DNA of 64,000 nt from a virus (IMGVR_UViG_3300025131_011243:32001-96000), one strand, 5' to 3'; positions 808 through 20,862 are shown, counted from the first letter of the stretch. Notes: a model not told the origin generated them from the sequence alone. Numbers and translations are program-made.

Positions 808-1440
808 TTACTTCCTAACATAAAATGTAAGGTAATCATGTATACCTGACCATTGAGGAATATCTATATCGTCTGTCTCTTCCCAATTTTCAGCCAACGT
901 GCAGAAGAAGCTATCATCCCCCGTGCATCCGTACCCACCTTCTCCAACAAATATCAACTTGTTGCCTAAGAATTTCTTCAATGTATTGTTAGCCATGGGA
1001 TCGTCGTATGGGGGCCAGACAAGCATAAGAACTCCATGAGTTCCGTATGCCGACATGGCCGCTTCATTACTCATGTCCTTCACATCGATAAACGGATCTC
1101 TTGACAATTCCTCTTGATGAGACGAAAGGTTGTCAGTAACGGTAACGTTTATACCTTCGTCTCTCATTAGTTTTGCCCAAAGCCCCAGACCGCCTCCTAC
1201 CTCAATAACCTTATCGTTTTGTACGAATGCTTTAATCTGTTCAATAGCCTCAATGTTAGGGACGGACCATCCGTAGTTATTGATATACTGCCTGCGTCTA
1301 TAGTGTTCTTTCATGTACCTGTCGATATCATCGCCCGCATCGCCCTCATACCTCTTGGCATTAGGGTCTATCCAATCGGGTCCATCGGGTCCAAAGCGTG
1401 AAAGCTCGTCGTACAGATTGGCGAACTTGAACCAGTTCAT
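808..1440 (-). CDS. SAM-dependent methyltransferase-like protein with MNWFKFAN leader
   Basis: VIEVGGGLGLW SAM-binding motif; LMLVWPPY and GCTGD motifs. Confidence 0.7.
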   Translation of the reverse strand: MNWFKFANLYDELSRFGPDGPDWIDPNAKRYEGDAGDDIDRYMKEHYRRRQYINNYGWSVPNIEAIEQIKAFVQNDKVIEVGGGLGLWAKLMRDEGINVTVTDNLSSHQEELSRDPFIDVKDMSNEAAMSAYGTHGVLMLVWPPYDDPMANNTLKKFLGNKLIFVGEGGYGCTGDDSFFCTLAENWEETDDIDIPQWSGIHDYLTFYVRK

Positions 1441-1513
1441 CCCTCATAATTCAAAAAAACGACAAGATCTACCTCTGAAAGGATTCAATACCGACCTTTT
1501 GCCCACTCTGCCT

Positions 1514-1873
1514 TTATAATCCAAATCCCGCCCGGCACCATCTGTGTATTTCCTGCGGAATAGCCATCCACGCCTTCCTCGGACTTATCGCTTGCTGACG
1601 TATCAACGCCCATAGGTCCTCAATGACCGTTCCCTTGTTATGAGCTACCAACCATCCAACAACGTTTCTGTCCCTCCAGTCCCCGCTTCTCCATGGCTGA
1701 TCCGCTCCCTTAATGTCAGGATTAACCTGTTCAAACCATGAATGAGTCTCAGGCGAAACAATGTCCGCACCAGTTGGACCAATCTTGTATGGCTGAGATG
1801 TATGCCAATGATTAGCATCAGCACGAACAAATCCAAAATCTTCATCATCTCCAGCAAACCATACTGGCTTGCG
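1514..1873 (-). other. Start-less 119-codon open frame (probable disrupted gene)
   Basis: Manual translation RKPVWFAGDDEDFGFVRADANHW...WCRAGFGL*; preceded by in-frame TAA at 1874-1876 and TTG at 1924. Confidence 0.45.
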
Positions 1874-1924
1874 TTACAGGGAAACAACCCTTCGATACCC
1901 TTGAAGGGGTAGTCCTTGAGGCAA

Positions 1925-2674
1925 TTAACGTATGCTCGCCATCTTAGCCCCTGATCTAAGAAACAGAGCGTCAATTCCCACAGCTATAAAGCGATACCCT
2001 TGATTCACCGCTTGTTGGACGGCTCCTCTGTCGGGCTCAACGACATGAATGCCAGCAGGTTTCTTGTGATACGAACATGTCTCCATGTATTCTCTCAAAG
2101 CCTTCTCAACGATGGGATGATCAAAGTCCCCGCAATGTCCCAACGTTCCGCTTAGATCGTACGGACCTACAAATGTAGCATCAACATCGTCCATCGCTAC
2201 GATGTTATGTAGATCCTGAAGAATGTCCTTATGTTCTACTTGAAGGATAACAGCGATCTCGTTGTTAGCTCTTTCGATGTAGTCTTTGAAGTTGTTTCCA
2301 TACATATTAGCAACGCTGAATCCGAACCCTCTATCGCCATGCGGAGGATACTTGCATTCGGCAACAGCATTCCTAGCTTCCGAGCAATTCTTGATCATAG
2401 GCACTATGATCCCGCCCGCACCGGCATCCAAGGATCGATGGATCCAAGTAGGATCGTTGTACGGAACTCTTACAACAGGCGATACGTCGCATCTATTGAG
2501 GATGCGGAATATGTCTGCTAATGACTCGATATTGATTGCACCATGTTCCAGGTCAACGCATACCCAGTCGAATCCTATGTCTGCCAAAATTTCGGCAATG
2601 GCGACATGAGGAATCTGCATCCATGTTCCGAATGTCAAACGCTCTTCTCTAATGAGACGCCTTAGATTTTTCAT
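1925..2674 (-). CDS. HpcH/HpaI family aldolase
   Basis: GFDWVCVDLEHG, VVRVP, LDAGAGGIIVPMI, YPPHGDRG, FVGPYDLS motifs; start likely ATG 2674 overlapping the iscA stop. Confidence 0.9.
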   Translation of the reverse strand: MKNLRRLIREERLTFGTWMQIPHVAIAEILADIGFDWVCVDLEHGAINIESLADIFRILNRCDVSPVVRVPYNDPTWIHRSLDAGAGGIIVPMIKNCSEARNAVAECKYPPHGDRGFGFSVANMYGNNFKDYIERANNEIAVILQVEHKDILQDLHNIVAMDDVDATFVGPYDLSGTLGHCGDFDHPIVEKALREYMETCSYHKKPAGIHVVEPDRGAVQQAVNQGYRFIAVGIDALFLRSGAKMASIR

Positions 2675-3000
2675 GCTGAGAAACTCGATCCACAACCGCA
2701 AGTGCTAGTAGAATTTGGGTTCTCGAATACAAAACCTTTACCCATCAATCCCTCTGAGAAATCAACTACTGTCCCGTTGAGGTAAAGATAACTTTTAGGA
2801 TCGCATATCACTTTAAGACCATGTTGAGAAAACTCTTCATCACTGTCATCCTTATCTTCTGTAAGATCAAGCAGGTAGCTAAAGCCTGAACATCCTCCGC
2901 CTTTGATTCCTACCCTAAGATGTATTCTGGCAATATCGATCTCTTCTTTCAAAGCAATATCTTTGACTTCGTTCGCCGCTATTTCTGTTAGTTCTATCAT
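2671..3000 (-). CDS. iscA: A-type Fe-S carrier, IscA/HesB family
   Basis: GGGCSGFSY and NPNSTSTCGCGSSF signatures. Confidence 0.95.
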   Translation of the reverse strand: MIELTEIAANEVKDIALKEEIDIARIHLRVGIKGGGCSGFSYLLDLTEDKDDSDEEFSQHGLKVICDPKSYLYLNGTVVDFSEGLMGKGFVFENPNSTSTCGCGSSFSA

Positions 3001-3245
3001 TCTTCGGCTTCCCTACCTACATAGTCGTCAATTGCTTCATGATTTCTTGCGTACACCATAACCATTGCTGTAAAACGATCAAGAGAGACGCCCTCTGGGA
3101 GGTCCCCAACAGAGGCAATTTCTCTTTGCAATTCTTCAAAAGAAGCTGTTGCGGGATCTATTTTGGATGTATACCGCAAGAACATCAAAGCCGCTTTTAC
3201 TTGACGAAGTCTTTCTTCGTTATCGATTTGATTAAACCAATTCAT
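2997..3245 (-). CDS. Hypothetical protein with MNWFNQ leader
   Basis: ORF with coupled stop/start overlaps at both ends. Confidence 0.7.
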   Translation of the reverse strand: MNWFNQIDNEERLRQVKAALMFLRYTSKIDPATASFEELQREIASVGDLPEGVSLDRFTAMVMVYARNHEAIDDYVGREAEE

Positions 3246-5647
3246 TGATCATCCGGCTTGGGCTCAAGAACATGAAGTTCGTTTTCCGCCCTTGTGTACG
3301 CAACGTACTTCAGGTTCCCTTCCTGAACCAAGTCTTCAGAATTTTTGGCATTAGGATGTGGGAATAACTGGTCTTCTACGATAAAGACTCTCTTGAATTG
3401 CATTCCCTTAGCCTTGTGGGCTGTGGTAAGTAGAACAAATGTTCTGGGGTCTTTCTTCTTCATGTCCTGAACCTTCTTCGCAGAATCTTCATCAACACCC
3501 CTAAATCTTTCCACTAAATATGTTCTTAAATCTCTTGTGGTATTTACCCTGATATTCAATTCCTGATCAAAGAAATTCATTTCCCTGAGATGGCTTACAA
3601 CACTTGTTAACGCCTCGGTAGCCTCTGTTACCTTACTCAATGCTTCGCTCTTAGCTATACGACCCTTCCATTTCTTTTGCTTGTCTTCTGAATATCTAAT
3701 TAATTCAGACATAAACTGATCTATACCCATCACTCTCTCGTTTTTGTTTTGGTCTTTGCCAGCTACGCTTGAGATATGCTTGGTCAGTTCTTCAGAAAAG
3801 TTCTTTCCAAGAACGACAAAATTCATTCCTCTTTTCAGTAGATCCATAGCGGCTGATGTGAGAGGTGCATTAACTCTAGATATGAATGCCGTCTCCTCTT
3901 TCAGCTTACCCCCACCATCCGTCCACTCATCTTGCAAACCCATAATAGCGTTATCGTACGACATGCCTTCTGTAACTTCTCCATCATGTTGCAAACCAGC
4001 TTGAAGGTCGTGTACGTTTGTGTTCTGATTAACGTAGTCAATGATATTCTTACCGCTTCTGTAGTTGGTTGGAAGCTCGTGCTGAGCCCCTCCTGTGTTT
4101 TGCGTTATCGTATCAAAAGTTTCATTTTCTCCCCCACGGAATCGATAAACAGCCTGATTGGGATCCCCCACTGCAACTATCCTAGCCCCCTGTTCCTCCA
4201 GTTTTTGAAGCATAAGAACTTGGCATCTATTGAAATCCTGAACCTCGTCTGCCAAGACGACATCATACCTCGGCCAACTTATTTGGTCTGCATAGATAGC
4301 GGAATACCAAAGCGTATCATCCTGATCTCTTAAACCTCGGAATAGATTCCTATTTGGATCTGGCTCTGGAAGAGGATTATCCGGAGTAGAATAATGGAGC
4401 ATATCCATGGCCTTATCTATGATTTGCGGAGTCCAATCTCTAGCATTTGGTGAAGGAACCCCATTTTTGTTATCTTCTAATGTAACATCAATAGTAAAGC
4501 TCTGAATCAACCCCTTTAGGAGATCGGTAGCACCTGGATCGCTTGGGATGACTGCAAAGTTTTTAGCCAAATTGGCGAGCCTTGATATGGAAATTTTTGC
4601 AGGCCAGTTAAGATGCCTGGGGAACGTACTGTCGTTTTTCATATAAGCATCAACCATCCTAAACATCCTAGATCCACCATATCCTTTCGGAATTAGACTG
4701 GAACTATCAATCAAATCCATTTTAGCACTCTTGCCCAAAATATTTCCTAAGAACGAGTGGCTTGTTTTTACCTCAACACCATTGGGAAATTTACCCTTAC
4801 CGGAAGATGCTTCTGTTTGATTCTTTTTGCCGAATACGATGTATATCCACTTCTCGGCAGGATCTTTGAATGACGCCAAATGCTTAAGCATAGTAGTCTT
4901 GCCTGCCCCAGCAAGAGCATTCATCATAATATTGTCATCAGATTGAAGGAACGAAACTTCTACGCCCTTCTGTTCAGGACTTATCCTGTCGTCGGGTATC
5001 CTACCTTTGACTGCATTCGGATCATCCGGCTGTTCGTCTTCCTGTTGAGCATCGCCATCTTGACCAGACGGTTGGGAAACCACCTTCGGCTTAATGATTC
5101 TGATCTGATCTCTACCATTGTAGTTTTCCCATTTAACGATACCGCTGATTCTTATAACGTCTCCGGCGACGAAACCTTCATCGTCCATGAAAACAGCCAT
5201 CTTAACTCCAGAAGCCTCTTCCAAAAGATAGTAATGATTGTATTTTGAAGGCTTGCTTACTAGAACTGTGAAGTCTTCCTCTATAGCATCTCCTTCATTG
5301 TACACCGTGGGAGCAACGGCAGGAGTCGCTGGTGGCTGAGGTTGAGCAACCGGTTGTTGAGGTTGGGGCTGAGTCCCAGGAGTTGCGGTCAGGGGCATTA
5401 GATCAACGCCCATACTTTGTTCAAGATAGTCTTTAGCTCTTTGATTGGCTGTAATGTGAGTTACTTCTATGGCCCACGCTCTGGGAACTATGCCATCCCA
5501 TCTAAATCCCATCTTACTAAGATCTTGCCTAAAGTCGTAGGTGGCCCCACCGGTTAGGGTAAAATAGGGGGTTCCTTGGACGTCAACCACATTAGATTGG
5601 ATGCCTCCAGCGGCTAAAACGATATGAGTATACCAGTTACCAAACAA
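3242..5647 (-). CDS. UvrD/Rep-like SF1 helicase with long N-terminal extension (NWY leader, P/Q linker, OB-like segment)
   Basis: ALAGAGKTT Walker A, LADEVQD, VGDPNQAVYRFRG, TNYRS, TAHKAKG, YVAYTRA. Confidence 0.9.
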   Translation of the reverse strand: MFGNWYTHIVLAAGGIQSNVVDVQGTPYFTLTGGATYDFRQDLSKMGFRWDGIVPRAWAIEVTHITANQRAKDYLEQSMGVDLMPLTATPGTQPQPQQPVAQPQPPATPAVAPTVYNEGDAIEEDFTVLVSKPSKYNHYYLLEEASGVKMAVFMDDEGFVAGDVIRISGIVKWENYNGRDQIRIIKPKVVSQPSGQDGDAQQEDEQPDDPNAVKGRIPDDRISPEQKGVEVSFLQSDDNIMMNALAGAGKTTMLKHLASFKDPAEKWIYIVFGKKNQTEASSGKGKFPNGVEVKTSHSFLGNILGKSAKMDLIDSSSLIPKGYGGSRMFRMVDAYMKNDSTFPRHLNWPAKISISRLANLAKNFAVIPSDPGATDLLKGLIQSFTIDVTLEDNKNGVPSPNARDWTPQIIDKAMDMLHYSTPDNPLPEPDPNRNLFRGLRDQDDTLWYSAIYADQISWPRYDVVLADEVQDFNRCQVLMLQKLEEQGARIVAVGDPNQAVYRFRGGENETFDTITQNTGGAQHELPTNYRSGKNIIDYVNQNTNVHDLQAGLQHDGEVTEGMSYDNAIMGLQDEWTDGGGKLKEETAFISRVNAPLTSAAMDLLKRGMNFVVLGKNFSEELTKHISSVAGKDQNKNERVMGIDQFMSELIRYSEDKQKKWKGRIAKSEALSKVTEATEALTSVVSHLREMNFFDQELNIRVNTTRDLRTYLVERFRGVDEDSAKKVQDMKKKDPRTFVLLTTAHKAKGMQFKRVFIVEDQLFPHPNAKNSEDLVQEGNLKYVAYTRAENELHVLEPKPDDQ

Positions 5648-5683
5648 TATTCTGCCCTTTGCATGGGATTATACCATATACCT

Positions 5684-5707
5684 TCGGGCAAAAGAAGGGC
5701 TTTACCT
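5684..5707 (-). promoter_or_regulatory. AGG-N18-CGAA promoter-like motif, followed by TGGTATAAT
   Basis: AGGtaaagcccttcttttgccCGAA upstream of the helicase. Confidence 0.5.
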
Positions 5708-6037
5708 TTGTCGAGTTAGGTTTTTTATCTCTTGGCGTAATGCGGCCATTTTTGACTTGATTTGTTCATCGGTCCAGTCGTCATAAAGGCATCCCTCGTC
5801 CTCATAAATCTCTACCCAATCTCCATCACCATCCACTGACAATTCGCTGAGAATTTCGGCTATCTTGAATGGGTCTTTGTTATCAATAGCTTTGATCAAA
5901 TCCTCATTACCACCTTCACGACATTCCATACGGTCGATAGCAAGACATTCCATGAACCGTTGTAGTTCTTTTTTGGTTCGCAATGTCTCTTCGGAAACAC
6001 TGTCTACATCGTAATCGTGCATGTGAACTTTGTACAT
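5702..6037 (-). CDS. Hypothetical acidic protein (paralog of 6041..6418)
   Basis: Shared MY..M.D.D.D, IKAI..KD and G..VEI motifs. Confidence 0.7.
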   Translation of the reverse strand: MYKVHMHDYDVDSVSEETLRTKKELQRFMECLAIDRMECREGGNEDLIKAIDNKDPFKIAEILSELSVDGDGDWVEIYEDEGCLYDDWTDEQIKSKMAALRQEIKNLTRQR

Positions 6038-6040
6038 CTT

Positions 6041-6418
6041 CTATCCCTGTTTTTCTTCGAGGATCAATTTCTCTTTTTCTCTGGCTATATTTTCGATCCT
6101 GTCTCTGATTTCCCCATCGGTTAGAAACGCAGGAGCAGGGGCATTCGTAGGATCATATTCTGCTATCTCCACATACTCCCCATTGCAATCTTCGTGAATC
6201 TTATTGTAAATCCTTACTATCTCGTCGATATCCTTGTCTTCTATTGCCTTAATCATGGCATTATCTTGTTCGTAATTTCTGTCTCCCGGTATACTGACTT
6301 CGTCACCTATAGCATCTAATGCTATTTCGGCCAAGAAGCGAAAGGTCTGATTTCTATCCTCAAAATCTTTTTCATAAACGAAGTCAGGGTCATGGTCATA
6401 CATCTTCAGATGATACAT
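6041..6418 (-). CDS. Hypothetical acidic protein (paralog of 5702..6037)
   Basis: Similarity to its neighbour, seen by eye. Confidence 0.7.
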   Translation of the reverse strand: MYHLKMYDHDPDFVYEKDFEDRNQTFRFLAEIALDAIGDEVSIPGDRNYEQDNAMIKAIEDKDIDEIVRIYNKIHEDCNGEYVEIAEYDPTNAPAPAFLTDGEIRDRIENIAREKEKLILEEKQG

Positions 6419-6738
6419 AAGTCATCTCCTTTGTCTTTTGCCCAAGCTACATCGAACCATGGACTTCCACATTCTCGGTATGTCCTGTTCATGGGGAATG
6501 GGGGACTACCTTGACCCTTATCGAACTTCTCTTTCTGTTCGCAAAACTCAAGAAATTTATCAAGATCATTACATTCATAAAGCTGGATGATTTCTGCCCA
6601 CTCCATCCAACGCCATTCATTGTCTATCTTTTTCGGCAAGAAGAGGAACCTCTTGATTGTCCGTATCTTCTCTCCTCTGGGTCCAGGTTTAGGTGGTCTG
6701 GCTGCTACTCTCATGGTTGTAATCCCGTTTAATGACAT
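6406..6738 (-). CDS. Hypothetical phage protein
   Basis: ORF in operon context; FLFLPKKIDNEWRWMEWAEI. Confidence 0.6.
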   Translation of the reverse strand: MSLNGITTMRVAARPPKPGPRGEKIRTIKRFLFLPKKIDNEWRWMEWAEIIQLYECNDLDKFLEFCEQKEKFDKGQGSPPFPMNRTYRECGSPWFDVAWAKDKGDDLCII

Positions 6739-6803
6739 GAGGGATTACTATAGCATATTTACTATCACTTCAAAAACGTCTAGCAAACTGGTCTAACCAG
6801 CCT

Positions 6804-7256
6804 CTATGTCATATTTGCGTTGAAATATTGAGGATCATCAGTCACATCACGAAGAACCCAAGGCGGCAATTTGAATTGATGATCTACATGAGGAAGCTCA
6901 ACCTCAGCAATGACAAGGTCACGATCCAGGAATTCATCAACTTCCCAAACCATGCCATCGAATTCAACAACGTACCTATTCTTGCGTATGATGGGAGGAG
7001 GACATAGCCAAAGCATTTCGCTGGCATCGTTTATTGGAATCTCGTACTCGAACTCTAGAGATGAAGCGTTCTCTTTCAGTCCCTTGACAGTAATAAATCC
7101 TCTGTTCTTTCCATTATGTCCTACTGTACGAATACGCACGGTTCTCTCGGGATCTCGACTAAGATACCCCTGAGAAATAGCATGACAACCGCTCGACATC
7201 TTGATGACGTCTTTTATGCCCAAGATTTTGAATTTACGTTCGATTTCTACAGCCAT
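6804..7256 (-). CDS. CYTH-domain (triphosphate tunnel) protein
   Basis: EIERKF start, QGYL, TVRIR, EFEYEIP, WEVDEF, AEVEL. Confidence 0.9.
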   Translation of the reverse strand: MAVEIERKFKILGIKDVIKMSSGCHAISQGYLSRDPERTVRIRTVGHNGKNRGFITVKGLKENASSLEFEYEIPINDASEMLWLCPPPIIRKNRYVVEFDGMVWEVDEFLDRDLVIAEVELPHVDHQFKLPPWVLRDVTDDPQYFNANMT

Positions 7257-7276
7257 TGCTACATCTTACTCAAATA

Positions 7277-7654
7277 CTACCACTTCCGATGCCATCTGCT
7301 GCTGCTGCTGCTGCGCTCACCATGTCGCCTGTTGCCCATATGTCTACTATGGGGCATGTGACGCCTACGATGACTGTCTCTTATGACCATATAGCCTCGA
7401 TTGTCAGGAAGGATAATAACTATTCTGACTCGTTCCCTATTGAAGGCAGGGCGGTAAGAAAAATCAGGACGATGCCACTGATAGCGGTCTTTGCAGCCCC
7501 TTCTTCCCAAGTCATTGGATCTGTGCTGCCTTAGCTGAGTTTTGCCTTCCCGGTCGTAGCGATGTCCTCGATCTCGTCTGCCGTCCTTAGCCATGGCCGG
7601 AGATGTAAAAGCCAAGGCCATGATGGCTACTAAAACTATAATCCATTTTGTCAT
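7277..7654 (-). CDS. Signal-peptide-bearing Arg/His-rich small protein
   Basis: MTKWIIVLVAIMALAFTSPAMA-K Sec-type signal; AGGAG RBS upstream. Confidence 0.6.
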   Translation of the reverse strand: MTKWIIVLVAIMALAFTSPAMAKDGRRDRGHRYDREGKTQLRQHRSNDLGRRGCKDRYQWHRPDFSYRPAFNRERVRIVIILPDNRGYMVIRDSHRRRHMPHSRHMGNRRHGERSSSSSRWHRKW

Positions 7655-7879
7655 ATTTGCTCTCCTTTCTATCTATTATAACGTCCAAAAGCTCTAAAAG
7701 TTGCCAGAATCCGGACATGACGCCGGATATCTGTCCCGATAGCCCATAATTGGCCTCAAATCTACCAGATTAAATCCCTTCTGTCCGGATTAAGCAGAAC
7801 CTCTGCAAACCCACCATGCCCACAAATGGGCTTCAGGAGCTTTGTGAAGAAGATGTTTTCTATCTGTCGATATTAAGGC

Positions 7880-8554
7880 ATGAATACAGTAGATACCCCA
7901 TGCCGTCTATGCCACTCTTTCGGCTTCTGTCAAAAATACGAACAAGACTACGCCAACCATGTAGACAAAAAAGGTGTATGGCAAAAATGCATGTCCCCTA
8001 TCCGTAAATGTCAGCATGCCATCGCCGATTTCCATTTAGACAAACTCCAAGGAGTCGATATCCTAGAAGTAGGATGCGGAAGCAAACGAAAAGGCGAATT
8101 CATCAAGAACTTGGTTACTCCCCATTGCCAATGGCGAGGTATGGATATTAAGAAGACTGACCTAACAACTGACATAGGAAGAGTCGAGAACATGCCATTT
8201 AACGATGAAGAGTTTGACATTGTTATCGGCAATCAGACGATGGAGCATTGGGACGACATCCCCAAAGCTTTGAGCGAGATCTACCGAGTCATGAGGCATC
8301 CTGGCGAATTGTACCTCAACGTTCCTATCTACCTTCATGGGTCAGAATATTTCGTCACTGGCAACTTGGAACCTGTAGCCAAAATGCTTAAGGAAGCCGG
8401 TTTTCACAACATCGTTGTGGAAACATGGAGAAAGGGCCATGAAGGTCTGGGAAGATACTTCCCCGGCGAATCGAAGAAGCATTGCAAGAAATTCGGCATG
8501 AAGATAGAAGATACAACTTCAGCCTATATCGCAAACTTCACCTGCGATAAATGA
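7880..8554 (+). CDS. Class I SAM-dependent methyltransferase (type 11-like)
   Basis: ILEVGCG, MPFNDEEFDIV, MEH, ALSEIYRVM.PG. Confidence 0.85.
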   Translation: MNTVDTPCRLCHSFGFCQKYEQDYANHVDKKGVWQKCMSPIRKCQHAIADFHLDKLQGVDILEVGCGSKRKGEFIKNLVTPHCQWRGMDIKKTDLTTDIGRVENMPFNDEEFDIVIGNQTMEHWDDIPKALSEIYRVMRHPGELYLNVPIYLHGSEYFVTGNLEPVAKMLKEAGFHNIVVETWRKGHEGLGRYFPGESKKHCKKFGMKIEDTTSAYIANFTCDK

Positions 8555-12391: not shown

Positions 12392-12439
12392 AGCTTATCT
12401 AATGTTCTATAAATGGGGGTCATTATCCTTGCTGATAGA

Positions 12440-12464
12440 AGGTTATGCTATCCTTATTGCCGAA
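12440..12464 (+). promoter_or_regulatory. AGG-N18-CGAA promoter-like motif; a divergent partner AGG-N18-AGAA lies on the minus strand at about 12405-12429
   Basis: AGGttatgctatccttattgcCGAA, 12 nt from C to the ATG at 12473. Confidence 0.55.
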
Positions 12465-12472
12465 ATTGAGGT

Positions 12473-13228: not shown

Positions 13229-13494
13229 CAGAATATAGACGCCTTTACGATCTTGTCGTTTTCGATATGAACACACATTCGATTGGGAATGGCACAGTAA
13301 TCCAGATGCTCCTCAATAAACTTCCCATCAACACTCAAAATGCTAACGAACAACGGCTTGCCCTCTCTGTCCCTCTTGCCCTTAAGAGCAAACTTAGCCT
13401 CCCTGTGCGTTAGACCTATAATGGACTGCTGAAGAGCCTCTCGTTCTTCTGTCGGATTCATATTAACTCCCCAATACCATAGGATATTTACCAA
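13225..13494 (-). CDS. Hypothetical protein
   Basis: ORF; start may be MNPTEE. Confidence 0.5.
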   Translation of the reverse strand: MVNILWYWGVNMNPTEEREALQQSIIGLTHREAKFALKGKRDREGKPLFVSILSVDGKFIEEHLDYCAIPNRMCVHIENDKIVKASIFC

Positions 13495-13885
13495 AACCTA
13501 TCTTCTCGCTGTCGATGGGGTCTTGAGGTTTATCAAACGCTGACGGAACAAGATATCCAAACAAGCAACTTCCTCCCCATCCTTCTTCGTAAGCATTGCC
13601 ATCATGAACCCATATACTGACTCGCATCCAACCACTTTCTGCCCAGACTTCGAACAACTCGTCAAAAACAAGCTTCTCTCTGAAAGCAATGTATTCTTCT
13701 TGGTTTTCGTGCGGGATTGCAATGCAGATGTTAAGTCCGTACAACTTGTCTTTGTCTTCACAGTCTTTGGGAACAAGATTAAAAGGCATGGCAGCTAGAC
13801 ATGACATACTGGATATGGGAATACTATCACGCTCTCCAGTCTTCTGATTTACGAAGAACATTTTCTTCATGGCATTCCTACGCAA
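13463..13885 (-). CDS. Hypothetical protein
   Basis: ORF in operon context. Confidence 0.6.
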   Translation of the reverse strand: MRRNAMKKMFFVNQKTGERDSIPISSMSCLAAMPFNLVPKDCEDKDKLYGLNICIAIPHENQEEYIAFREKLVFDELFEVWAESGWMRVSIWVHDGNAYEEGWGGSCLFGYLVPSAFDKPQDPIDSEKIGFGKYPMVLGS

Positions 13886-14232
13886 AAAGGAGGCTCTCTA
13901 AAAGCCTTAAACACCAAACCATTGCCGATTACAAGTGGAACTACTTTAGCAATCATGTCAATACACGATTGCTCGTCATCGAACTTGCAGAAAGTGCAAT
14001 CCCCAGTCATGACTTTCTCCATACCGTCAGCACGATATGGAGGAGTTCTCATAGGGTTAAAATATAATCCCCATTGTTCGGTCTGGGAAAAGAGCATGAA
14101 TTTAGCATCGATGCCGTAGATCTCTCCAAGATCCTCATCGACCACGAACCTAGCCATGAAATCTTCAAAACTATTGATCTCTTCTGGATTAAAATAATCT
14201 CTGATACTCATGCAATATAGATCGTCACACAA
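13867..14232 (-). CDS. Hypothetical protein
   Basis: ORF in operon context. Confidence 0.55.
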   Translation of the reverse strand: MCDDLYCMSIRDYFNPEEINSFEDFMARFVVDEDLGEIYGIDAKFMLFSQTEQWGLYFNPMRTPPYRADGMEKVMTGDCTFCKFDDEQSCIDMIAKVVPLVIGNGLVFKAFREPPFCVGMP

Positions 14233-14249
14233 ATTGCCAGATCTTGAAC

Positions 14250-14630
14250 CTAGAACATGAAGCCGTCTTCGTCGTCTTGTCTTTCTCGCTCAACTATATA
14301 GGGCTCCTCTACCTCATACGCTTCACTACCATAGGCTGGATCTATAGTATGAAAAGAACTATCACTCTCCGGGGTCCACCCTTTATCAGCCTTAGCTTGA
14401 TACTCGGATGCTTTCTGATCGGAAGAATTCTGATCTCTGGTTCCAAGGTCAGCAGCCCAACGAGATCCATCTGTCATTTCGGCAACAATATAAAAGGATT
14501 CTCCATAGATGTGACCACTGGGATTCTCCATATCAGCTAACTCTGGATCTTGTCCAATCACCCCATAATCTGATCGGGCAAAAACTCGAACGACCCTATC
14601 TTTGTACCCTGAAGTTTTAACAATCCTCAT
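14250..14630 (-). CDS. Hypothetical protein with MRIVKTSGYK leader
   Basis: ORF; AAGGA RBS. Confidence 0.7.
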   Translation of the reverse strand: MRIVKTSGYKDRVVRVFARSDYGVIGQDPELADMENPSGHIYGESFYIVAEMTDGSRWAADLGTRDQNSSDQKASEYQAKADKGWTPESDSSFHTIDPAYGSEAYEVEEPYIVERERQDDEDGFMF

Positions 14631-14641
14631 AACGATATCCT

Positions 14642-15271
14642 TTATATGTACTCTACCTTGGCTACTTTCAGTGGACCATTGAACGCAATACTACCACCTC
14701 TTCCAACAAATTGCAACAAATCCTCTTGACTCATGATGGATTTCATCTTACGAGCAACATCCTTGACCATCTCTGAATAAGAGGCGTCAACATTATCAGA
14801 CCCCTCCATCATCTCGTTTGTCGCATGAAATCCATCAAATGCCTCGTCCATCGAAACGTTGCCCCACTCCGGATTACGATCCTCTTGGATCATTCTCCTG
14901 TAAGCCTCCCAGACCTCTTTGACCCCCGGCTCGCTAGAAGAAGGATTTGTATCAGATAAATAGTCTGCAACCTGATCTTCATCAGGCATAGCTAAGTTGT
15001 AGTCAGGAACAGCATGGATAACAGCTACACCTTGAGCCTTGGTAATGCTGGAGATCTCTTTAGCATACTTAATTGCTGCGTCTTTTGAAAAGAAACAATA
15101 AACGCTATCCGGGTCTGAGGGGTTTCCGCCAAAAAACCCTCCGCTCCAATTGCCTGGTCCCGATCCTCTGGGAGAGATAATTCCATCTTGCTCAATCTTT
15201 TGGGCAAGAGAAGCTATCGTTCCATGATAAACGATGTTGGACAAAGATTGGGAAGTCTTGTACCAGTTCAT
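14642..15271 (-). CDS. MNWYKTSQ-leader protein, ADP-ribosyltransferase-like (YHGT)
   Basis: IVYHGT....AQKIEQDGI...SVYCF....AIKYA pattern typical of HYE-type/KptA-like ART folds. Confidence 0.6.
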   Translation of the reverse strand: MNWYKTSQSLSNIVYHGTIASLAQKIEQDGIISPRGSGPGNWSGGFFGGNPSDPDSVYCFFSKDAAIKYAKEISSITKAQGVAVIHAVPDYNLAMPDEDQVADYLSDTNPSSSEPGVKEVWEAYRRMIQEDRNPEWGNVSMDEAFDGFHATNEMMEGSDNVDASYSEMVKDVARKMKSIMSQEDLLQFVGRGGSIAFNGPLKVAKVEYI

Positions 15272-15360
15272 ACAGTTCGATATATCGCTCTAAAGTTCCT
15301 GGATCACGACGCTTTAAGCGACAAACTGTCGGGATTCAGAGTGTCTGATTATCAGATATC

Positions 15361-15576
15361 ATGAATTGCGACATGAAAAACATATCCACCTACGTCTCTT
15401 GGGAAGTTTGGCAAATGATGCGACCAGCATTCAGGGCGGTCTCTGATAAGTACGGAAACCAATTTAGGCAAAGTATTTGTCGAGGATTTGATAAAGGAAG
15501 AAACCCTTCATTCCTAGCACAGAGGATACAACAAAGAATGTTAAAAGACCCGCAAGGAACCCAATATGAGGATTAA
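15361..15576 (+). CDS. Small hypothetical protein
   Basis: ORF overlapping the next gene. Confidence 0.4.
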   Translation: MNCDMKNISTYVSWEVWQMMRPAFRAVSDKYGNQFRQSICRGFDKGRNPSFLAQRIQQRMLKDPQGTQYED

Positions 15577-16111
15577 CCTTTTCGGAGCCCCAGGCAGTGG
15601 TAAATCAACAACTGCCGCATGGCTGTTTTCAGAACTCAAAGTAGCTGGATATAACGTCGAACAAGTCACAGAATATGTCAAGTTCTGGACCTACATCCCC
15701 AGAGAAGTAAAGCCTTGGGATCAAGTCTACATCTTAGGCAAACAAATCCATCAAGAAGCGACGATCTTAGCCGGAGGAGCAGACCATATCGTTTCTGATT
15801 CTCCGCTGCTTATAGCTGTGTTCTACTCTTTCTATTATAACAACCCAATGCAATACGATCTACTGAACATAGCCCTTAGATTCGAAATGCACTATCCATC
15901 CATCAACATCTATCTCGAACAAGATGATATTATGGAATTCTCGGATACCGGCAGATATCACGGTAAAGAAGAATCTGCAAAAATCGATGCAGATATGAAA
16001 GACTATCTTACGATGTGGACTAATGGGAAGTTTACAAGATTAAAAGCAACGGATAGGGAAAATATAATATCCAATGTAGTCGATGCCTTGTCTAGTCATC
16101 AAAAAACCTAA
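15566..16111 (+). CDS. P-loop nucleotide kinase / NadR-like AAA protein
   Basis: INLFGAPGSGKST Walker A; IVSDSPL. Confidence 0.8.
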   Translation: MRINLFGAPGSGKSTTAAWLFSELKVAGYNVEQVTEYVKFWTYIPREVKPWDQVYILGKQIHQEATILAGGADHIVSDSPLLIAVFYSFYYNNPMQYDLLNIALRFEMHYPSINIYLEQDDIMEFSDTGRYHGKEESAKIDADMKDYLTMWTNGKFTRLKATDRENIISNVVDALSSHQKT

Positions 16112-16478
16112 TCTTGTGACCAGGATACATGTTGATCAAATTCAATGTAGCGTCCTCAACAAGTGGCCTACTCCACCCTTCTGATGACAATAGTTTGGCA
16201 GACCCAAAATCTATTACTCTCATCGATATAAACCTTCGTCCTATGCGACCGTAGGAAAATATCCTGCCCAACTTCTTCTTCATAGAAATGTTTTGATCTT
16301 CAAATGTCCGATGATCGGTCTTGACTTCTTCTTTACTCAAGACGATAAGCTCATTGTTCAGAGAAGACCACCACCAATAAGATACACAATCTTCTTCATG
16401 ACCTATTGAACAATAATTAAACGGAACCCACTCATCTAAACTTATCTCCATATTACTATCGACAAAATTTCGGCACAA
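16092..16478 (-). CDS. Hypothetical protein
   Basis: ORF; start probably MEISLD. Confidence 0.5.
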   Translation of the reverse strand: MCRNFVDSNMEISLDEWVPFNYCSIGHEEDCVSYWWWSSLNNELIVLSKEEVKTDHRTFEDQNISMKKKLGRIFSYGRIGRRFISMRVIDFGSAKLLSSEGWSRPLVEDATLNLINMYPGHKIRFFDD

Positions 16479-16503
16479 AAAAAGCGACCCTAATAGGTCG
16501 CTC
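16476..16503 (-). terminator. Rho-independent terminator
   Basis: AGCGACC-stem hairpin followed by a T-run on the minus strand. Confidence 0.75.
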
Positions 16504-16523
16504 TACCGCACATGCCGGGAGGT

Positions 16524-16910
16524 TTATCCAAGATATGACGTTATTTCGTATTTGCCCGAAGGCATAACACACCAAGATAACGTTAGCATAGCATTCTTAA
16601 CAGGAGATCTCTGACCGTCTACTTCCCATACCAAATCAAAGTCTGCCCGTTGGTCGGCAGCTTGAGGGTCTCCACATTCCTTACCCCCAAGTAACATGCC
16701 ATTCCAATTCGACCCCTCTTCATCTATGGGGTAAACATCGTGGGCTTTGAGGATATCAAACAAACCCTGAAGCGGGATTTGCTCGAAATACTTGCCTGTC
16801 AAAAGATCGTATATCTTCCGGCTTATGCTACGCTTCACCTGAGGAGGCAAAACTTTTGGCATTGGCAAGGCACTTTCATTTTCCCATCCCGCTGTCCTGA
16901 TTACCCTCAT
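16524..16910 (-). CDS. Hypothetical protein with MRVIRTAGW leader
   Basis: ORF; ATGA overlap. Confidence 0.75.
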   Translation of the reverse strand: MRVIRTAGWENESALPMPKVLPPQVKRSISRKIYDLLTGKYFEQIPLQGLFDILKAHDVYPIDEEGSNWNGMLLGGKECGDPQAADQRADFDLVWEVDGQRSPVKNAMLTLSWCVMPSGKYEITSYLG

Positions 16911-17410
16911 GCCCCCATTCTCCTCTCAGCCATCATCTCCTGATGAGATTCCCAAGCACTTTGAGACCTCTCTTCTAGATACTTAATGAACTCTTCGTCC
17001 AAAGGTTCCGGAACAACTCTTTGACCCTTACATTCGTAACATTGAACGTCATATCGCCCGCTTGTGTATTCTTCTGCAAAATCTGGATCTTCAGCAAAAT
17101 CCTCTCCCGTCAATCCACCCGCATCAATGGATGGATTGACATGAGTACCCTTGCCTTGGCAAGTTTCACAAACCACCCATTTGAAAGGAATCATTTTCCG
17201 TTCCGTTGTATCGTAATCCAGAGACCCGTCAGGACCCACAGGGGCTGGCATCTCTACCAAAGCTTGCATGTTCTTGATATCAAGCTTTTCGTACCAACTG
17301 CCTTTGTTGCCAGCCATGACTCGACTGTCGCCCATGTAATTGAGGTCGTCCATGATAGCTCTTGCATCTGAGTTAGACATCTTGTATCCTTTTGTTCTTA
17401 TGGTTCTCAT
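16907..17410 (-). CDS. Protein with MRTIRTKGYK leader and DnaJ-type CxxCxGxG zinc finger
   Basis: CETCQGKG and CYECKGQR. Confidence 0.75.
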   Translation of the reverse strand: MRTIRTKGYKMSNSDARAIMDDLNYMGDSRVMAGNKGSWYEKLDIKNMQALVEMPAPVGPDGSLDYDTTERKMIPFKWVVCETCQGKGTHVNPSIDAGGLTGEDFAEDPDFAEEYTSGRYDVQCYECKGQRVVPEPLDEEFIKYLEERSQSAWESHQEMMAERRMGA

Positions 17411-17413
17411 GGT

Positions 17414-18373
17414 TTAATATCCATCTGGGTAGTCATTGGGATTATAATCTCTGTCCCAAGCTTCTTGTCTTTCTATTTCATCCATAGGATCATATTCTGG
17501 TTCATCATATCCAACGTCACTCGTATCCAAGTCATCGTCGTCTATGGCGGGACCCCATCTCTCTTCTATCGTTTGGAACAATTCTTTTGGCATTTGGATT
17601 TTCGTTTTGCCGTCTATGATAAGAGTTGCTCCATTAACAAGCCTTTCATCAGATCCCTCTGGGGGATATCCGGGATCTCCATTCGATAGGGTATGAACAC
17701 CTGGATCATAGTATCCTGAGCTTTCGTAATCAATAGATATTTCCATCGTATGATCGGAAGGGTTCGCTCCTAATGAAGAGAAATGTTGCATGATAAATGC
17801 AGAGACATCATCCGGTACGGCTGTATCGTTTCCTTCTTCTATAATCTCGTTCGTCTCTTCGGGTATGTATAATTCAACTGTGATGCTTCCGTATACTCCG
17901 CTCCAAGATTTGGAGCGTCCAGCACTCTTAAGCCATCCAGACCTTCTGCCGACTCTTATCCAATCTCGCTGATCCATCTGAAGCTTGTTCTCAACGGGCT
18001 GTTCTGGTTGCGTTGGTTGTTCTGGTTGAGTTGGTTGCGTTGGCAAAGGGCCATATTTAATCTCGTCTTCAGACGTCACGTTGAATCCCTTACCCTTAAG
18101 TGAAGCGATTGCCTGTTGTAACTGTTCGGCAGGCATAGGAACCCTAAACGATTGTCCTGTAAACATCCTCTCATTAAAATTCTGTGGCTTAACACTCTTA
18201 AGGTATTGTTTGGCTCTATTGCTTACAAATTCCAACACCACAGGACCACTACCAGGACCTCCATCATGCAATAATATATCCGCTTCTCTACGGCGACGAG
18301 AGGTCTCCATTTGAGCAGGAGTTCTTTCGTCTTCCCATGCCGTCTTCCATCCCGATGTTCTGATTACTTTCAT
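17414..18373 (-). CDS. Two-part protein with MKVIRTSGWKTA leader and internal WIRVGRRSGWLKSA motif
   Basis: ORF; AGGAG RBS; QPTQPEQP linker. Confidence 0.75.
   Translation of the reverse strand: MKVIRTSGWKTAWEDERTPAQMETSRRRREADILLHDGGPGSGPVVLEFVSNRAKQYLKSVKPQNFNERMFTGQSFRVPMPAEQLQQAIASLKGKGFNVTSEDEIKYGPLPTQPTQPEQPTQPEQPVENKLQMDQRDWIRVGRRSGWLKSAGRSKSWSGVYGSITVELYIPEETNEIIEEGNDTAVPDDVSAFIMQHFSSLGANPSDHTMEISIDYESSGYYDPGVHTLSNGDPGYPPEGSDERLVNGATLIIDGKTKIQMPKELFQTIEERWGPAIDDDDLDTSDVGYDEPEYDPMDEIERQEAWDRDYNPNDYPDGY
17996..18042 (-). repeat. Short 9-nt tandem repeats encoding a QPT/QPE linker
   Basis: gttctggtt/gcgttggtt units. Confidence 0.6.
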
Positions 18374-18421
18374 ACTGAATTCTCCTGCTTAGAACTTATC
18401 TATACCCTTCTGCTCAAATCG

Positions 18422-18691
18422 TCAGTTTCCTTCAATGCTATCGAATAAAGTGGAATCAGGTTTATTCTTGACGGAAGTTTTCTTGGGTTCAGGAACCTCT
18501 TGATTCAAGGATTTCAATATCCTGAATACGTCAGAAAATTTACTGTACTTGATGCCCCACTTTAATCGCTGTAGCAAATGAGAATTAGATCCAGTATAAA
18601 CATACCGTTTGCCATCAATATAGACTACAAGCCTGCCCGTAGAGTCGTGAGCCGCAATTTGGACTTCAGTAGCAATCTTAAACCAGTTCAT
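18422..18691 (-). CDS. Small protein with MNWFKIAT leader (weak KTSC-like resemblance)
   Basis: DSTGRLVVYIDGKRYVYTG. Confidence 0.6.
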   Translation of the reverse strand: MNWFKIATEVQIAAHDSTGRLVVYIDGKRYVYTGSNSHLLQRLKWGIKYSKFSDVFRILKSLNQEVPEPKKTSVKNKPDSTLFDSIEGN

Positions 18692-18817
18692 ACATTATAT
18701 TCGATTATTTCATATGATGAACCTGGAAACAAAAAAAAGGCCCCTCCGTCCATGCGTAGGGACGAAGAGGCTAGAAACATGAAGCATTTACTCTATCTAT
18801 ATCGTCATATTGACGGA

Positions 18818-19018
18818 TTATACATCATCGTCAAAATCATCTTCTATAGGAGCGAACTCAATAAGATAAGTCCCACCAACAATGATCTCTTGACCCTTTT
18901 CGGTCATGAAACATGCTCTCTCTTTTGAATATGAAATATTAGTGACATTTTCCCAAGCAAGGAAGGGCTCCTTGGGATTAGGGGTATATAACACTACTCT
19001 ACCTTTTCTGTCTGACAT
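18818..19018 (-). CDS. Hypothetical protein
   Basis: ORF with AGGAG RBS. Confidence 0.6.
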   Translation of the reverse strand: MSDRKGRVVLYTPNPKEPFLAWENVTNISYSKERACFMTEKGQEIIVGGTYLIEFAPIEDDFDDDV

Positions 19019-19077
19019 GTTTGTTCTCCTATGTATTACCTATCGACAGAACTCAAATTGTAATTGAATTTTTGGCA

Positions 19078-19102
19078 CAAAAAAGCGGCACGAATGCCGC
19101 TT
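19078..19102 (-). terminator. Rho-independent terminator
   Basis: AAGCGGCA-TTCG-TGCCGCTT hairpin followed by a T-run on the minus strand. Confidence 0.8.
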
Positions 19103-19122
19103 GGAAAGGCGTGAAAGTAATT

Positions 19123-19548
19123 TTATGCCATCTGCTGTTGCTGAGGTTGCTGAGGTTACTGTTGTTGCTGCTGCCCTTGTTGCTGTTCCTGCTGTATCTC
19201 TTGGATCTGCTGTTGTATGCCCTGTAGCCTTTGCTGTAATGTCTGCTGTAGTTGTTGCAATTTCTGTAAATCAACCTGCTGATCATGCGAACCCACGCCA
19301 GCAGTTTGCGGACCAGAAACTGGTTGCTGGGAAAAAGTACCAGTGTCCTAATCTACCACTTCTTCCATTTCCTGTTGAGGCTGTTGAGGCTGCTGAGGCT
19401 GTTGTTGAGTCTGAGGCTGAGTCTGCTTGTTCCACCACCCCGCCTGCTTACCTATCCGCCTCCACTCATTCTTGCTCATCTTAAACGTATAACCACCATC
19501 GTCTTTCAAGATGAGTTGGGAACCTGATTTGCTAGATAGTTTTTTCAT
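19123..19548 (-). pseudogene. Gln-rich protein interrupted by in-frame TAG (19348-19350) and TAA (19156-19158)
   Basis: Frame continues ...EEVVD*DTGTFSQQP...QQQQQ*PQQPQQQQMA*. Confidence 0.6.
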
Positions 19549-20095
19549 TATATTCTCCTACTGGACCTCGATGGGGTGCCTCTTCTTTGCGAAAATCCCA
19601 ACTACGATCTACATGTTTATTTTCAGCCAAACCACTTTCATATGGCTGATGTTCTTTGATTATGGAAATAAGGTAATCCGCATACCCCACTTCTTCATCA
19701 TGAGTAACTATGTCTTTCCTGGAATTGAATGGAATACCTCTTAGCTTGAGCCACCCTTCCATCAACTTAACAGCCCCAGGTTTCCCAGCTTGCAAAAACT
19801 GAGTATAAAGTTCTTCAAAATCTGTATCGCCTTCAATGATATCAGCCTCTTCCTCTTCCGTAGGGAATTTGTCATTCCATTGCCAAGATTGGGCTAATTT
19901 CCTTTCTGCTACGTTTCTCACCTCTTCCTCTTTGGCCGGAATTCCCCAACCTCCGCAAGGTATGCAAGACTTAAGATCAGGAAGAGGAGGAACCTCACTC
20001 TTTGGATAAAACATCAGTCTATCACATTCAGGACATCTGATATATTCAATCATGCCTTGATCCCGCTTGTATCCCGCTGTCCTGATTGTTCTCAT
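19532..20095 (-). CDS. Protein with MRTIRTAGYK leader and zinc ribbon
   Basis: CPEC...CIPC; internal KLAQ. Confidence 0.7.
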   Translation of the reverse strand: MRTIRTAGYKRDQGMIEYIRCPECDRLMFYPKSEVPPLPDLKSCIPCGGWGIPAKEEEVRNVAERKLAQSWQWNDKFPTEEEEADIIEGDTDFEELYTQFLQAGKPGAVKLMEGWLKLRGIPFNSRKDIVTHDEEVGYADYLISIIKEHQPYESGLAENKHVDRSWDFRKEEAPHRGPVGEYNEKTI

Positions 20096-20160
20096 CTATC
20101 TACTTTCCCCACAATTGGGTAGATTCCTTTGGGATTCCTATTTGATTTGGAAGAACCAGT

Positions 20161-20862
20161 TCATGCCGCTTGACCCATCTGGTTCAAAACATTACCTATG
20201 TAAGTCTCTATCCACCTGGCTACTTGTTCTTCATTATATTGACCTGACTCAAGATATTGTAAAGCATACTGCGACATTGTATTCGATACGTTCTGTCCCC
20301 AAGAAACCTTTTCCTTATCGTCAGCCCCCAACGAATGAGTCCTGTTTCCAAAAGAGATACCATTCGCACTTGCCCACTGCTGAACTGCCACCTGAATGTC
20401 GTTGACAGCTTCTTTGTTGCTAAAATGGATAACTACTCTGTCATTGTGACCCAAATAAGCAGTCGCCGTTGAAGGAACCTTGTAATCTAAATTAGATTGA
20501 TAAGATGAAGCTATTGGCTGTAGGTATTGAAATAAACCTCCTATGCCTCCAATGACTTTTTCAATGTCTTCATCACTTGGTGTGAAATATAGTTTGTAAT
20601 TGCCGGATTCTTGAGGCAAACCTTTTTGGACATCCCATTGAGCCCAAGCAGGATTGCTAACACTAGAACTATTTACCGCAGCTATGTATTGTTGCTTAAT
20701 TTCCGTAGACACATTGGCTGCCGCCTGTTGCCAACCAGGATGAGTCGTTATCGCTTTATACAAAAATCCAGACAACTGGGCCTGATCTTTACTTGACAGT
20801 ACAGAAACTAGACCAGAGTGGGATATCTGTATGACTTGATTAGCTTGTTTGAACCAGTTCAT
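20161..20862 (-). CDS. MNWFKQAN-leader protein
   Basis: ORF; YKLYFTP...YKVP...HNDRVVIHF. Confidence 0.7.
   Translation of the reverse strand: MNWFKQANQVIQISHSGLVSVLSSKDQAQLSGFLYKAITTHPGWQQAAANVSTEIKQQYIAAVNSSSVSNPAWAQWDVQKGLPQESGNYKLYFTPSDEDIEKVIGGIGGLFQYLQPIASSYQSNLDYKVPSTATAYLGHNDRVVIHFSNKEAVNDIQVAVQQWASANGISFGNRTHSLGADDKEKVSWGQNVSNTMSQYALQYLESGQYNEEQVARWIETYIGNVLNQMGQAA

Follow-up and report, generated by a model that had tools for sequence, protein, structure and literature searches.

A recurrent N-terminal octapeptide on unrelated proteins of a phage-G-like megaphage and its possible role as a cargo address

Why should proteins that share nothing else begin with the same eight residues? 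The question is raised by a 64,000-nucleotide stretch of viral DNA (hereafter the window), comprising bases 32001–96000 of one viral contig of 122,591 bp (IMGVR_UViG_3300025131_011243), in which a series of genes between positions 808 and 20862 open with the octapeptide M-N-W-[YF]-K-x-[AS]-[QNK] (tag 1) on otherwise unrelated proteins. The contig has a CheckV completeness of 26%. Judged by its gene content, the window is a fragment of a phage-G-like megaphage, an assignment made because its capsid protein resembles gp27 of Bacillus phage G and because its relatives, 114 of which were recovered by searching IMG/VR with that protein, include complete genomes of 461–548 kb. The best 80 of these 114 loci, with capsid identities of 72–92%, were kept for comparison; below, G000 denotes the window's own genome (the contig) and G001–G004 the related tag-bearing genomes, with phage G being compared separately. 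A megablast search of a phage collection with positions 8000–21000 of the window returned no matches.

The tag and the proteins that carry it

The tag exists, is non-random and is clade-wide. A sequence-only reading of the window had listed 12 tagged starts, and all of these are present: 11 on the minus strand, at 1440, 3245, 8980, 9506, 10480 (internal), 11392, 11856, 12391, 15271, 18691 and 20862, and a single one on the plus strand, at 12473, each opening an open reading frame (ORF) of 82–629 codons. A start codon (ATG, GTG or TTG) followed by AAY-TGG is found 19 times in the window; 12 of these matches are genuine and all fall within 808–20862, one of the remaining seven is an eight-codon orphan at 20164, and the other six either have no aromatic-K continuation or lie in ORFs of 3–96 codons elsewhere. 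The strict DNA pattern ATGAAYTGGTWYAAR is matched 10 times in the window versus not once in any of 100 dinucleotide-preserving shuffles. Two of the proposed members have to be downgraded: the start at 3245 (MNWFNQID), taken as a full tag, has neither K5 nor A7 and is a weak variant, and the GNWY variant ascribed to a helicase is MFGNWYTH, a TTG-called start without K-x-A. The count of 12 is right for the window but too low as a total, since the contig as a whole carries 23 tagged ORFs (10 upstream of the window, 12 inside it and one just downstream) and a second tag family is present in the same interval.

Beyond the contig, the tag is found in the complete genomes of related phages, four of which have 10, 3, 10 and 1 matches to the strict pattern and none to a reversed control pattern. 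The number of tags varies widely among genomes, with G002 and G004 having the same motif in fewer tags and the contig of the window, although a fragment, exceeding every complete relative. A scan of IMG/VR with one 15-mer yielded at least about 30 real tags, among them a tandem array with four tags in 1 kb (L171), mixed with chance matches and an unrelated repeated element. That element, as a separate observation, is conserved, contains the 15-mer by chance and occurs, among the matches listed, at about 25 IMG/VR loci as well as in L126, L128 and L139, in many viral contigs of 20–45 kb; it reads ..MNWYKPA[RH]SSP.. in frame with stops on both sides. A literature search for the tag strings and for N-terminal motifs of huge phages, which did not extend to preprint supplements, found no relevant paper.

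The tagged proteins are indeed unrelated past about eight residues, as the sequence-only reading had it: when 29 of them were compared after removal of the first 12 residues, no BLASTP pair was found at E<0.01. Across 51 tagged ORFs from three genomes the consensus is M-N-W-[YF]-K-[QK]-[AS]-[QK], with conservation stopping at residue 8 and only 12 pairs being similar past the tag, one of them a self-overlap. The further claim that selection acts on the peptide is also borne out, because the synonymous codons vary and track each genome's own usage—e.g., in G000 AAC is used in 13/23 tags (genome share 46%) and TTC in 6/11 (genome 51%), and in G001 AAC is used in 3/14 (genome share 16%)—and because conservative replacements occur (K to R, exchanges among Y, F and H, A/S), some of which need several base changes. 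A mild bias to A-ending codons is seen in the tags.

The tag-1 genes of the window are as follows.

808–1440, minus strand: MNWFKFAN; 210 residues, methyltransferase-like (Methyltransf_23 at E 1.8e-4, below the cut-off; phrog_19090 at 1e-29)
2997–3245, minus strand: weak variant MNWFNQID; 82 residues, no family
8555–8980, minus strand: MNWYKQAQ; 141 residues, with a Tad6 (type I Thoeris inhibitor) domain from about residue 11 (PF25188, 121.3 bits against a gathering cut-off of 27, E 4.5e-35)
8967–9506, minus strand: MNWYKETS; 179 residues, its ATG overlapping the stop of the upstream gene (ATGA)
9503–11392, minus strand: MNWYKFAQ; 629 residues, with a second tag, MNWHKESQ, inside at residue 305 (window 10480)
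11392–11856, minus strand: MNWYKQAV; 154 residues, GNAT (Acetyltransf_1, 26.2 bits, cut-off 20.7)
11843–12391, minus strand: MNWYKESQ; 182 residues, GNAT-like, slightly below the cut-off
12473–13228, plus strand: MNWFKKIS; 251 residues, no family; divergent from the gene starting at 12391 over an 81-bp spacer
14642–15271, minus strand: MNWYKTSQ; 209 residues, Y-H-G-T directly past the tag, ART-like by motif only
18422–18691, minus strand: MNWFKIAT; 89 residues, similar to the C-terminal part of a relative's tagged PcfJ-like protein
20161–20862, minus strand: MNWFKQAN; 233 residues, no family
20138–20164, minus strand: orphan tag MNWFFQIK in an eight-codon ORF, its ATG overlapping the stop of the tagged gene 20161–20862

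Comparison with homologues indicates that the tag is an add-on to these unrelated domains, missing from most of their homologues elsewhere. Among 68 Tad6 homologues the domain lies right at the start in 58, whereas MNWYK is present in three (the window's own and two others, one of them on a 473-kb contig) and a variant, MWYR-x-A, in seven. Similarly, an untagged homologue (P0070) of the protein at 14642–15271 starts five residues before W/Y-H-G-T, compared with 13 in the tagged form. In the AlphaFold model of the Tad6 protein (mean predicted local distance difference test score, pLDDT, of 88, from an alignment of 49 sequences) the domain begins at residue 11, and the mean is 61 over residues 1–10, which include a one-turn helix (residues 3–6), versus 96 over the 20 that follow; the tag is thus predicted to be flexible and exposed. 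As to the features of Sec, Tat or lipoprotein signal peptides, no common hydrophobic core was found in the tagged N-termini, whose conservation ends with the octapeptide, and a membrane segment follows the tag in only three tagged proteins, all of them wall hydrolases.

The 629-residue ORF is apparently the product of two tagged genes or cassettes fused by loss of a stop codon, and the orphan at 20164 looks like the stump of a tagged cassette that was lost or replaced. Together they show rearrangements that end at tags, which fits swappable cassettes without identifying their function.

In terms of content, seven tagged proteins of the window match no family. Three GNAT domains had been proposed, of which one passes the Pfam cut-off (11392–11856) and one is just under it (11843–12391), but the third, in the N-terminal half of the 629-residue ORF, is weak (10481–11392, E 0.005). 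The three ART-like domains proposed alongside them were not recovered: no tagged protein of the window matches an ART family in Pfam even at E≤5, in a search that covered 15 unexplained tagged proteins, and only the protein at 14642–15271 opens with an ART-type Y-H-G-T. The AlphaFold model of the protein at 14642–15271 has a mean pLDDT of 52, from an alignment of five sequences.

The repertoire widens in the remainder of the contig and in the relatives. Upstream of the window the tag is found on a CCA/polyA-polymerase of the Pol-beta type with an HD domain (553 residues, E 1e-21), a DnaJ-domain protein and a HAD-type nucleotidase-like protein, and downstream of it on a cell-wall hydrolase with a membrane segment past the tag. 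In the relatives it is carried by ART-PolyVal domains (8e-15 and 1.6e-6), PcfJ-like proteins (two), DUF5661 (two), SLT transglycosylases with a membrane segment (two), HTH proteins (three), and one each of a GNAT, an AAA_33 kinase and HicA. Most tagged proteins have 63–250 residues and at most one Pfam domain, the exceptions being the fused 629-residue ORF and the PcfJ-like proteins of 568–596 residues. The tag is absent from the window's clearly housekeeping or structural genes, i.e., those for the reductase, dUTPase, terminase, portal, capsid protein, sigma factor and NAD enzymes.

A second tag family and the head polyprotein

An unbiased comparison of N-termini brought out a second family, M-[RK]-x-[IV]-[RK]-T-[ASK]-G-[YW] (tag 2), which has the same residue 4–8 register as tag 1 and is carried by five mutually unrelated minus-strand ORFs (14630, 16910, 17410, 18373 and 20095) interleaved with the MNW genes.

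14250–14630, minus strand: MRIVKTSGYK; 126 residues
16524–18373, minus strand: three consecutive tag-2 genes, unrelated past the tag, with MRVIRTAGWE (128 residues), MRTIRTKGYK (167 residues) and MKVIRTSGWK (319 residues)
19532–20095, minus strand: MRTIRTAGYK; 187 residues

The core of this register, [FYIVLWMH][KR].[AS][QGTSNK], stands at residues 4–8 in 12/152 proteins of G000, 12/638 of G003 and 9/739 of G001, versus a mean (maximum) of 0.3 (2), 1.0 (3) and 1.4 (4) when the same core is sought at 40 internal offsets. The 12 proteins of G000 are seven with tag 1, four with tag 2 and the head polyprotein. Likewise, the only matches other than W-tags to the pattern hydrophobic-x-K-x-[AS]-polar at residues 3–8 are this polyprotein, in each of the three genomes, and a single further protein; an internal control offset gives no match. 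The polyprotein and the other relevant proteins of this part of the window are the following.

25183–26055, minus strand: major capsid protein, 290 residues, 53% identity to Bacillus phage G gp27
26732–33652, minus strand: head polyprotein, 2306 residues, between the portal and capsid genes; starts MAFYKTAT and has 14 K-x-A-[STQ] sites
33741–34157, minus strand: head-module protein between the portal and the polyprotein, 138 residues; MVFNLSKQAG, with K-x-A-G kept in orthologues
34166–36439, minus strand: portal protein with a C-terminal DUF559/REase-like endonuclease insertion at residues ~628–704
43818–44252, minus strand: head-module protein, 144 residues; starts MRPMKKHAQ (N-terminal K-x-A-Q)
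47563–48501, minus strand: head-module protein adjoining the terminase, 312 residues; starts MTFNLKKHAE (N-terminal K-x-A)

At the N-terminus of the polyprotein stands a prohead protease domain interrupted by an intein, and beyond it lie regions of scaffold-like, acidic or repeat character. The protease domain shares 47% identity with gp19 of phage G, which is labelled head maturation protease in a supplementary table of PMC12484599, and also matches phrog_18299; orthologues of the polyprotein keep the start M-[AS]-hydrophobic-x-K-x-A-[TS]. A related motif recurs within the chain: K.A[STQ] occurs 14, 14, 10, 13 and 12 times in the five orthologues versus 2.0–3.4 expected from composition, which places the polyprotein first in four of the proteomes and second in the fifth, and in each of the three orthologues that were shuffled, 0/500 shuffles reached the observed count. 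Six of the sites are positionally conserved, 76% have a hydrophobic residue at −1 or −2 versus a 45% background, and twelve control or permuted motifs occur 0–8 times, the permuted controls 0–5 times. Next in rank for K.A[STQ] come proteins encoded beside the polyprotein in the head module. When K.[AS][QN] or K.A[QN] is counted instead, head-module proteins adjoining the portal rank highest in two relatives. The core derived from the N-termini, which had been defined earlier, is also enriched in the polyprotein (24–32 versus 11–17 expected; ranks 1, 1, 1, 2 and 1). At the level of sequence, then, the register of the tags is shared with the head polyprotein, and a related motif is enriched inside it. 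In phage G the K-x-A enrichment is weak.

As further observations on this protein, residues ~950–1100 (window ~30350–30800, minus strand) hold TYETITEDQL- and VITEKQ-type repeats that are kept in three orthologues and may have a structural role or else offer alternative protease sites (I-T-E). LAGLIDADG inteins are found in its prohead protease domain (26732–33652), in the ribonucleotide reductase (53228–57040) and in the S8 subtilase (L082 15466–18300), and free-standing homing endonucleases are frequent (34–630, 24046–25035, 44361–45092 and 57903–58514).

Phage G, in which the MNWYK tag was sought and found to be absent, has an N-terminus of its own, M[KR]RLI-x-K (MKRLIKK), on 11 start-proximal ORFs. 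The positions in NC_023719.1 include 11937, 16055, 28218, 73330, 147654, 179204, 254652 and 446709, with three further ORFs at 67732, 103932 and 245994; eight ORFs have strict MKRLI starts (gp13, gp17, gp38, gp126, gp213, gp251, gp345 and gp610), with gp13 and gp17 flanking the portal gene, and members of the annotated 'gp336 multigene family' are included in the set. Three of these ORFs continue with F/Y-H-G-T, with matches to diphtheria-toxin/PARP-type ART domains below threshold only (E 0.01–0.04). The main text of the phage G multi-omics paper (PMC12484599) makes no mention of N-termini and gives no data on the tagged gene products, which are listed in its supplementary annotation table without a detection column. 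A different repeated N-terminus was observed in two of the relatives, where tandem arrays of 6–7 genes (L086 11857–16348 of G003 and L114 8790–12625 of G001) start with MKIR[TN]GF[VI]SNSSSSSF and have unrelated remainders.

In the rest of the window are found genes for a portal, a large terminase, an intein-bearing ribonucleotide reductase, a dUTPase, a sigma factor, a macro-domain protein and enzymes of NAD salvage. Tad6 (8555–8980), the macro-domain protein (58543–59151) and the NAPRTase and NAD synthase (60165–63412) look like a toolkit against NAD-depleting defence.

Cargo address or another signal

The shared register, the K-x-A enrichment and the domains of polyvalent type fit an address like the capsid targeting sequence (CTS) of phage T4, with removal by a protease. 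In this light, the tag may be a T4-CTS-like cargo address that imitates the start of the protease/scaffold polyprotein and the K-x-A-polar repeats inside it, a reading that we regard as evenly poised between right and wrong. Tag 1 and tag 2 (M-[RK]-x-[IV]-[RK]-T-[AS]-G) would both be portable N-terminal address labels, by means of which separately encoded effectors, i.e., anti-defence and host-modifying enzymes, would join the scaffold core of the assembling prohead. A phage protease—either the prohead protease of the HK97/gp19 type or the clade's S8 subtilase—would trim the label at or near K-x-A, as happens to the T4 targeting sequence, and the effectors would exit with the DNA at the next infection. 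On a broader and somewhat more tentative view, to which we incline a little less than halfway, megaphages of the phage G lineage would possess a portable N-terminal 'postal code', an aromatic-capped copy of K-x-A-polar that loads dozens of effectors for co-injection (anti-Thoeris, ART, GNAT, methyltransferase, tRNA nucleotidyltransferase, transglycosylase and regulators), with lineage dialects (MNWYK.., MRTIRTAG.., MKRLIKK..) and cassette turnover at the tag boundary, amounting to an unbundled, programmable counterpart of the polyvalent proteins.

The original proposal of a cargo-loading system thus survives to the extent that the tag is real, selected as a peptide, portable, clade-wide and linked to the head polyprotein, but not in its exact motif: for K.[AS][QN], G000 is the only genome whose polyprotein shows an enrichment (7 versus 2.15, p 0.007), with the polyprotein ranking 15, 78, 79 and 101 in the four relatives. 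Several other observations weigh against an address of this kind. The fourth position of the motif is mostly S/T in the polyprotein and mostly Q/N/K in the tags, and K.A[STQ] was defined after the alignment of the polyprotein had been seen. In the complete relatives, tagged genes are dispersed genome-wide rather than being limited to the head module, and the internal copy at 10480 would have no free N-terminus. Some of the tagged proteins are unexpected as cargo (the CCA-adding/HD enzyme, the DnaJ-domain protein, the HAD nucleotidase, the HTH regulators, the kinase and HicA), and the tagged wall hydrolases have what appears by eye to be a hydrophobic, membrane-anchor-like stretch directly past the tag. 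The tagged proteins are also acidic, with a median isoelectric point (pI) of 4.9 and a pI<6 in 87.5% of 24 versus 56% of 119 untagged ones, a property not obviously suited to lying in packed DNA. Finally, their ribosome-binding sites are weaker than those of untagged genes (−3.0 versus −4.2 kcal/mol, a marginal difference at p 0.04), in contrast to the strong sites of the structural genes.

What else could such a peptide be? One possibility, rather unlikely in our estimate, is that it is a recognition or cleavage site for a cytoplasmic phage protease (the S8 subtilase, or else the prohead protease domain once released), by which effectors are switched on or off at a set time with no packaging involved. 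The gene for the subtilase is as follows.

Contig 27466–30300 (L082 15466–18300), plus strand: S8 subtilase, 944 residues, with an intein and a C-terminal lamin-tail domain

There is one S8 subtilase per genome in all five tag-bearing genomes and none in phage G, which has another tag; in G000 two tagged genes of the same strand immediately precede the subtilase gene (contig 26261–30300), and the order hydrophobic-K-x-A followed by S/T/Q resembles a subtilase-type site, with its hydrophobic P4 and small P1. However, this co-occurrence is not independent, because it sets five related genomes against a single one, and the concentration of the motif in the head polyprotein and its neighbours points to the prohead instead.

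Of comparably low probability is a docking label, in which the aromatic-basic N-terminus would bind some other hub—a host machine, a phage chaperone or a membrane interface—and thereby concentrate the effectors. The tag's flexible, exposed position in the model would suit such a label, as would the very wide range of tagged functions, the three wall hydrolases with the tag directly before a membrane anchor, and the combination of W/Y/F with K that is typical of interfacial anchors. Against it, there is no candidate partner, and neither the register shared with the polyprotein nor the internal enrichment of K-x-A-polar is explained by it.

A third suggestion, which we consider improbable, is that of an N-terminal degron that would have early effectors destroyed on schedule, through a host AAA+ protease or the N-end-rule pathway. 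The order polar-aromatic-aromatic-basic resembles N-terminal signals read by ClpX as well as the residue preference of ClpS. Phage G is reported to encode both ClpX and ClpP (PMC12484599), but searches of the five tag-bearing genomes yielded neither ClpP nor a ClpX zinc-finger domain. Moreover, the tagged enzymes seem useful all through infection, and the internal repeats of the head polyprotein would be left unexplained.

The weaker Shine-Dalgarno pairing of the tagged genes raises, at a similarly slight probability, the prospect of a feature acting in nucleic acid, whereby the 5′ codons aid initiation on messages that are poorly led by a Shine-Dalgarno sequence or provide microhomology for cassette swaps. 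The mildly A-ending tag codons, the rearrangements ending at tags (the orphan at 20164 and the double-tag ORF at 10480) and tandem arrays such as that of L171 are in keeping with this. However, 7/22 tagged genes have good Shine-Dalgarno sites, synonymous sites track genome usage, and replacements take 2–3 base changes (e.g., K to R as AAA to CGT). The peptide remains constant across genomes with sharply different synonymous codon usage, and the polyprotein shares its register though the DNA differs. On expression timing, a promoter and terminator scan of 801–20800 found 28 promoter-like sites versus 39 in shuffles and is therefore uninformative. Separately, TTG(T)GCCGAAAT was observed at 12459 (plus strand), 16474 (minus) and 20876 (minus), in each case just past a terminator-like hairpin and 6–25 bases before a start codon; it may be a phage promoter element, with two of the three downstream genes being tagged, too few to interpret.

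That the tag is a remnant of shared ancestry with no specific function, one ancestor's 5′ end kept by chance or weak constraint as the remainder diverged or was replaced, is very improbable even if multigene families with a conserved N-terminus are common in these genomes (the MKIR[TN]GFVSNSSSSSF arrays and the phage G 'gp336 multigene family'), because divergence cannot explain tagged domains that fall in different Pfam families, homologues outside the clade have no tag, and the tag is retained across genomes whose capsid proteins are only 72–92% identical to that of the window.

Were the tag a cargo address, the arsenal that uncultured megaphages inject could be read off from their N-termini, and many new anti-defence and host-takeover proteins would be indicated, because for most tagged proteins no family is known. 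The address would equally offer a short peptide that could be transferred to foreign proteins so as to load them into very large capsids. A scaffold/protease motif would have been reused as a general sorting signal, which would account for the fast-turnover arrays of small genes in these genomes. Phage G, which is in culture and carries a dialect of its own (MKRLIKK), makes the idea directly testable.

Relation to known systems

Among known systems, the closest parallel to the proposed address may be drawn with T4, the CTS of which ends in the cleavage motif of the prohead protease, a motif that is also used in the scaffold proteins. In T4, a short N-terminal peptide directs the internal proteins into the scaffolding core (PMC3012670; for Alt, PMC5512222). 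Like the CTS of the T-even internal proteins IPI–III and Alt, the tag is a short N-terminal peptide on unrelated, fast-evolving proteins of anti-defence or host-modifying type, and the tag likewise shares a motif with the protease/scaffold polyprotein, which would match the T4 arrangement if that motif were the cleavage site. It differs in belonging to a phage-G-like lineage, in its motif, and in the fusion of a protease domain of the HK97/gp19 type to the scaffold. Its repertoire is also much wider: a 26%-complete fragment already carries 23 or more tagged genes, and one genome has at least two tag dialects.

A second parallel lies in the cargo-loading peptides of encapsulins, which are short, terminal, carried by unrelated cargo and serve as an address to the interior of a shell of HK97 fold; the capsid protein of the window is one that we take to have an HK97-type fold. 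In contrast to the tag, for which trimming is proposed, the encapsulin peptides bind the shell protein directly and stay uncleaved.

The Dar and Ddr proteins of phage P1 are accessory proteins for countering defence that are built into the head during morphogenesis, with DdrB being processed before packaging (PMC5512222). Unlike for the tagged proteins, no common short N-terminal tag is described for them in the available part of that account, and no homology to them was found.

Finally, the tagged set invites comparison with the polyvalent proteins, whose domains include ART, GNAT, Pol-beta nucleotidyltransferase, methylase and lysozyme (Iyer et al. 2017, PMC5512222) and which, when phage-encoded, are predicted in the same source to be packaged in the capsid and injected. 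The tagged proteins include ART-PolyVal, GNAT, methyltransferase, Pol-beta nucleotidyltransferase and muramidase domains, and their predicted role is likewise that of pre-made effectors delivered with the DNA. However, the polyvalent proteins string 2–15 domains along one polypeptide, often linked to MuF or the portal, whereas most of the tagged domains form separate proteins that are tagged individually; MuF (PF04233), the usual companion of polyvalent domains, was found in 0/5 genomes. Thus, the tagged set would be an 'unbundled' version of the polyvalent proteins.

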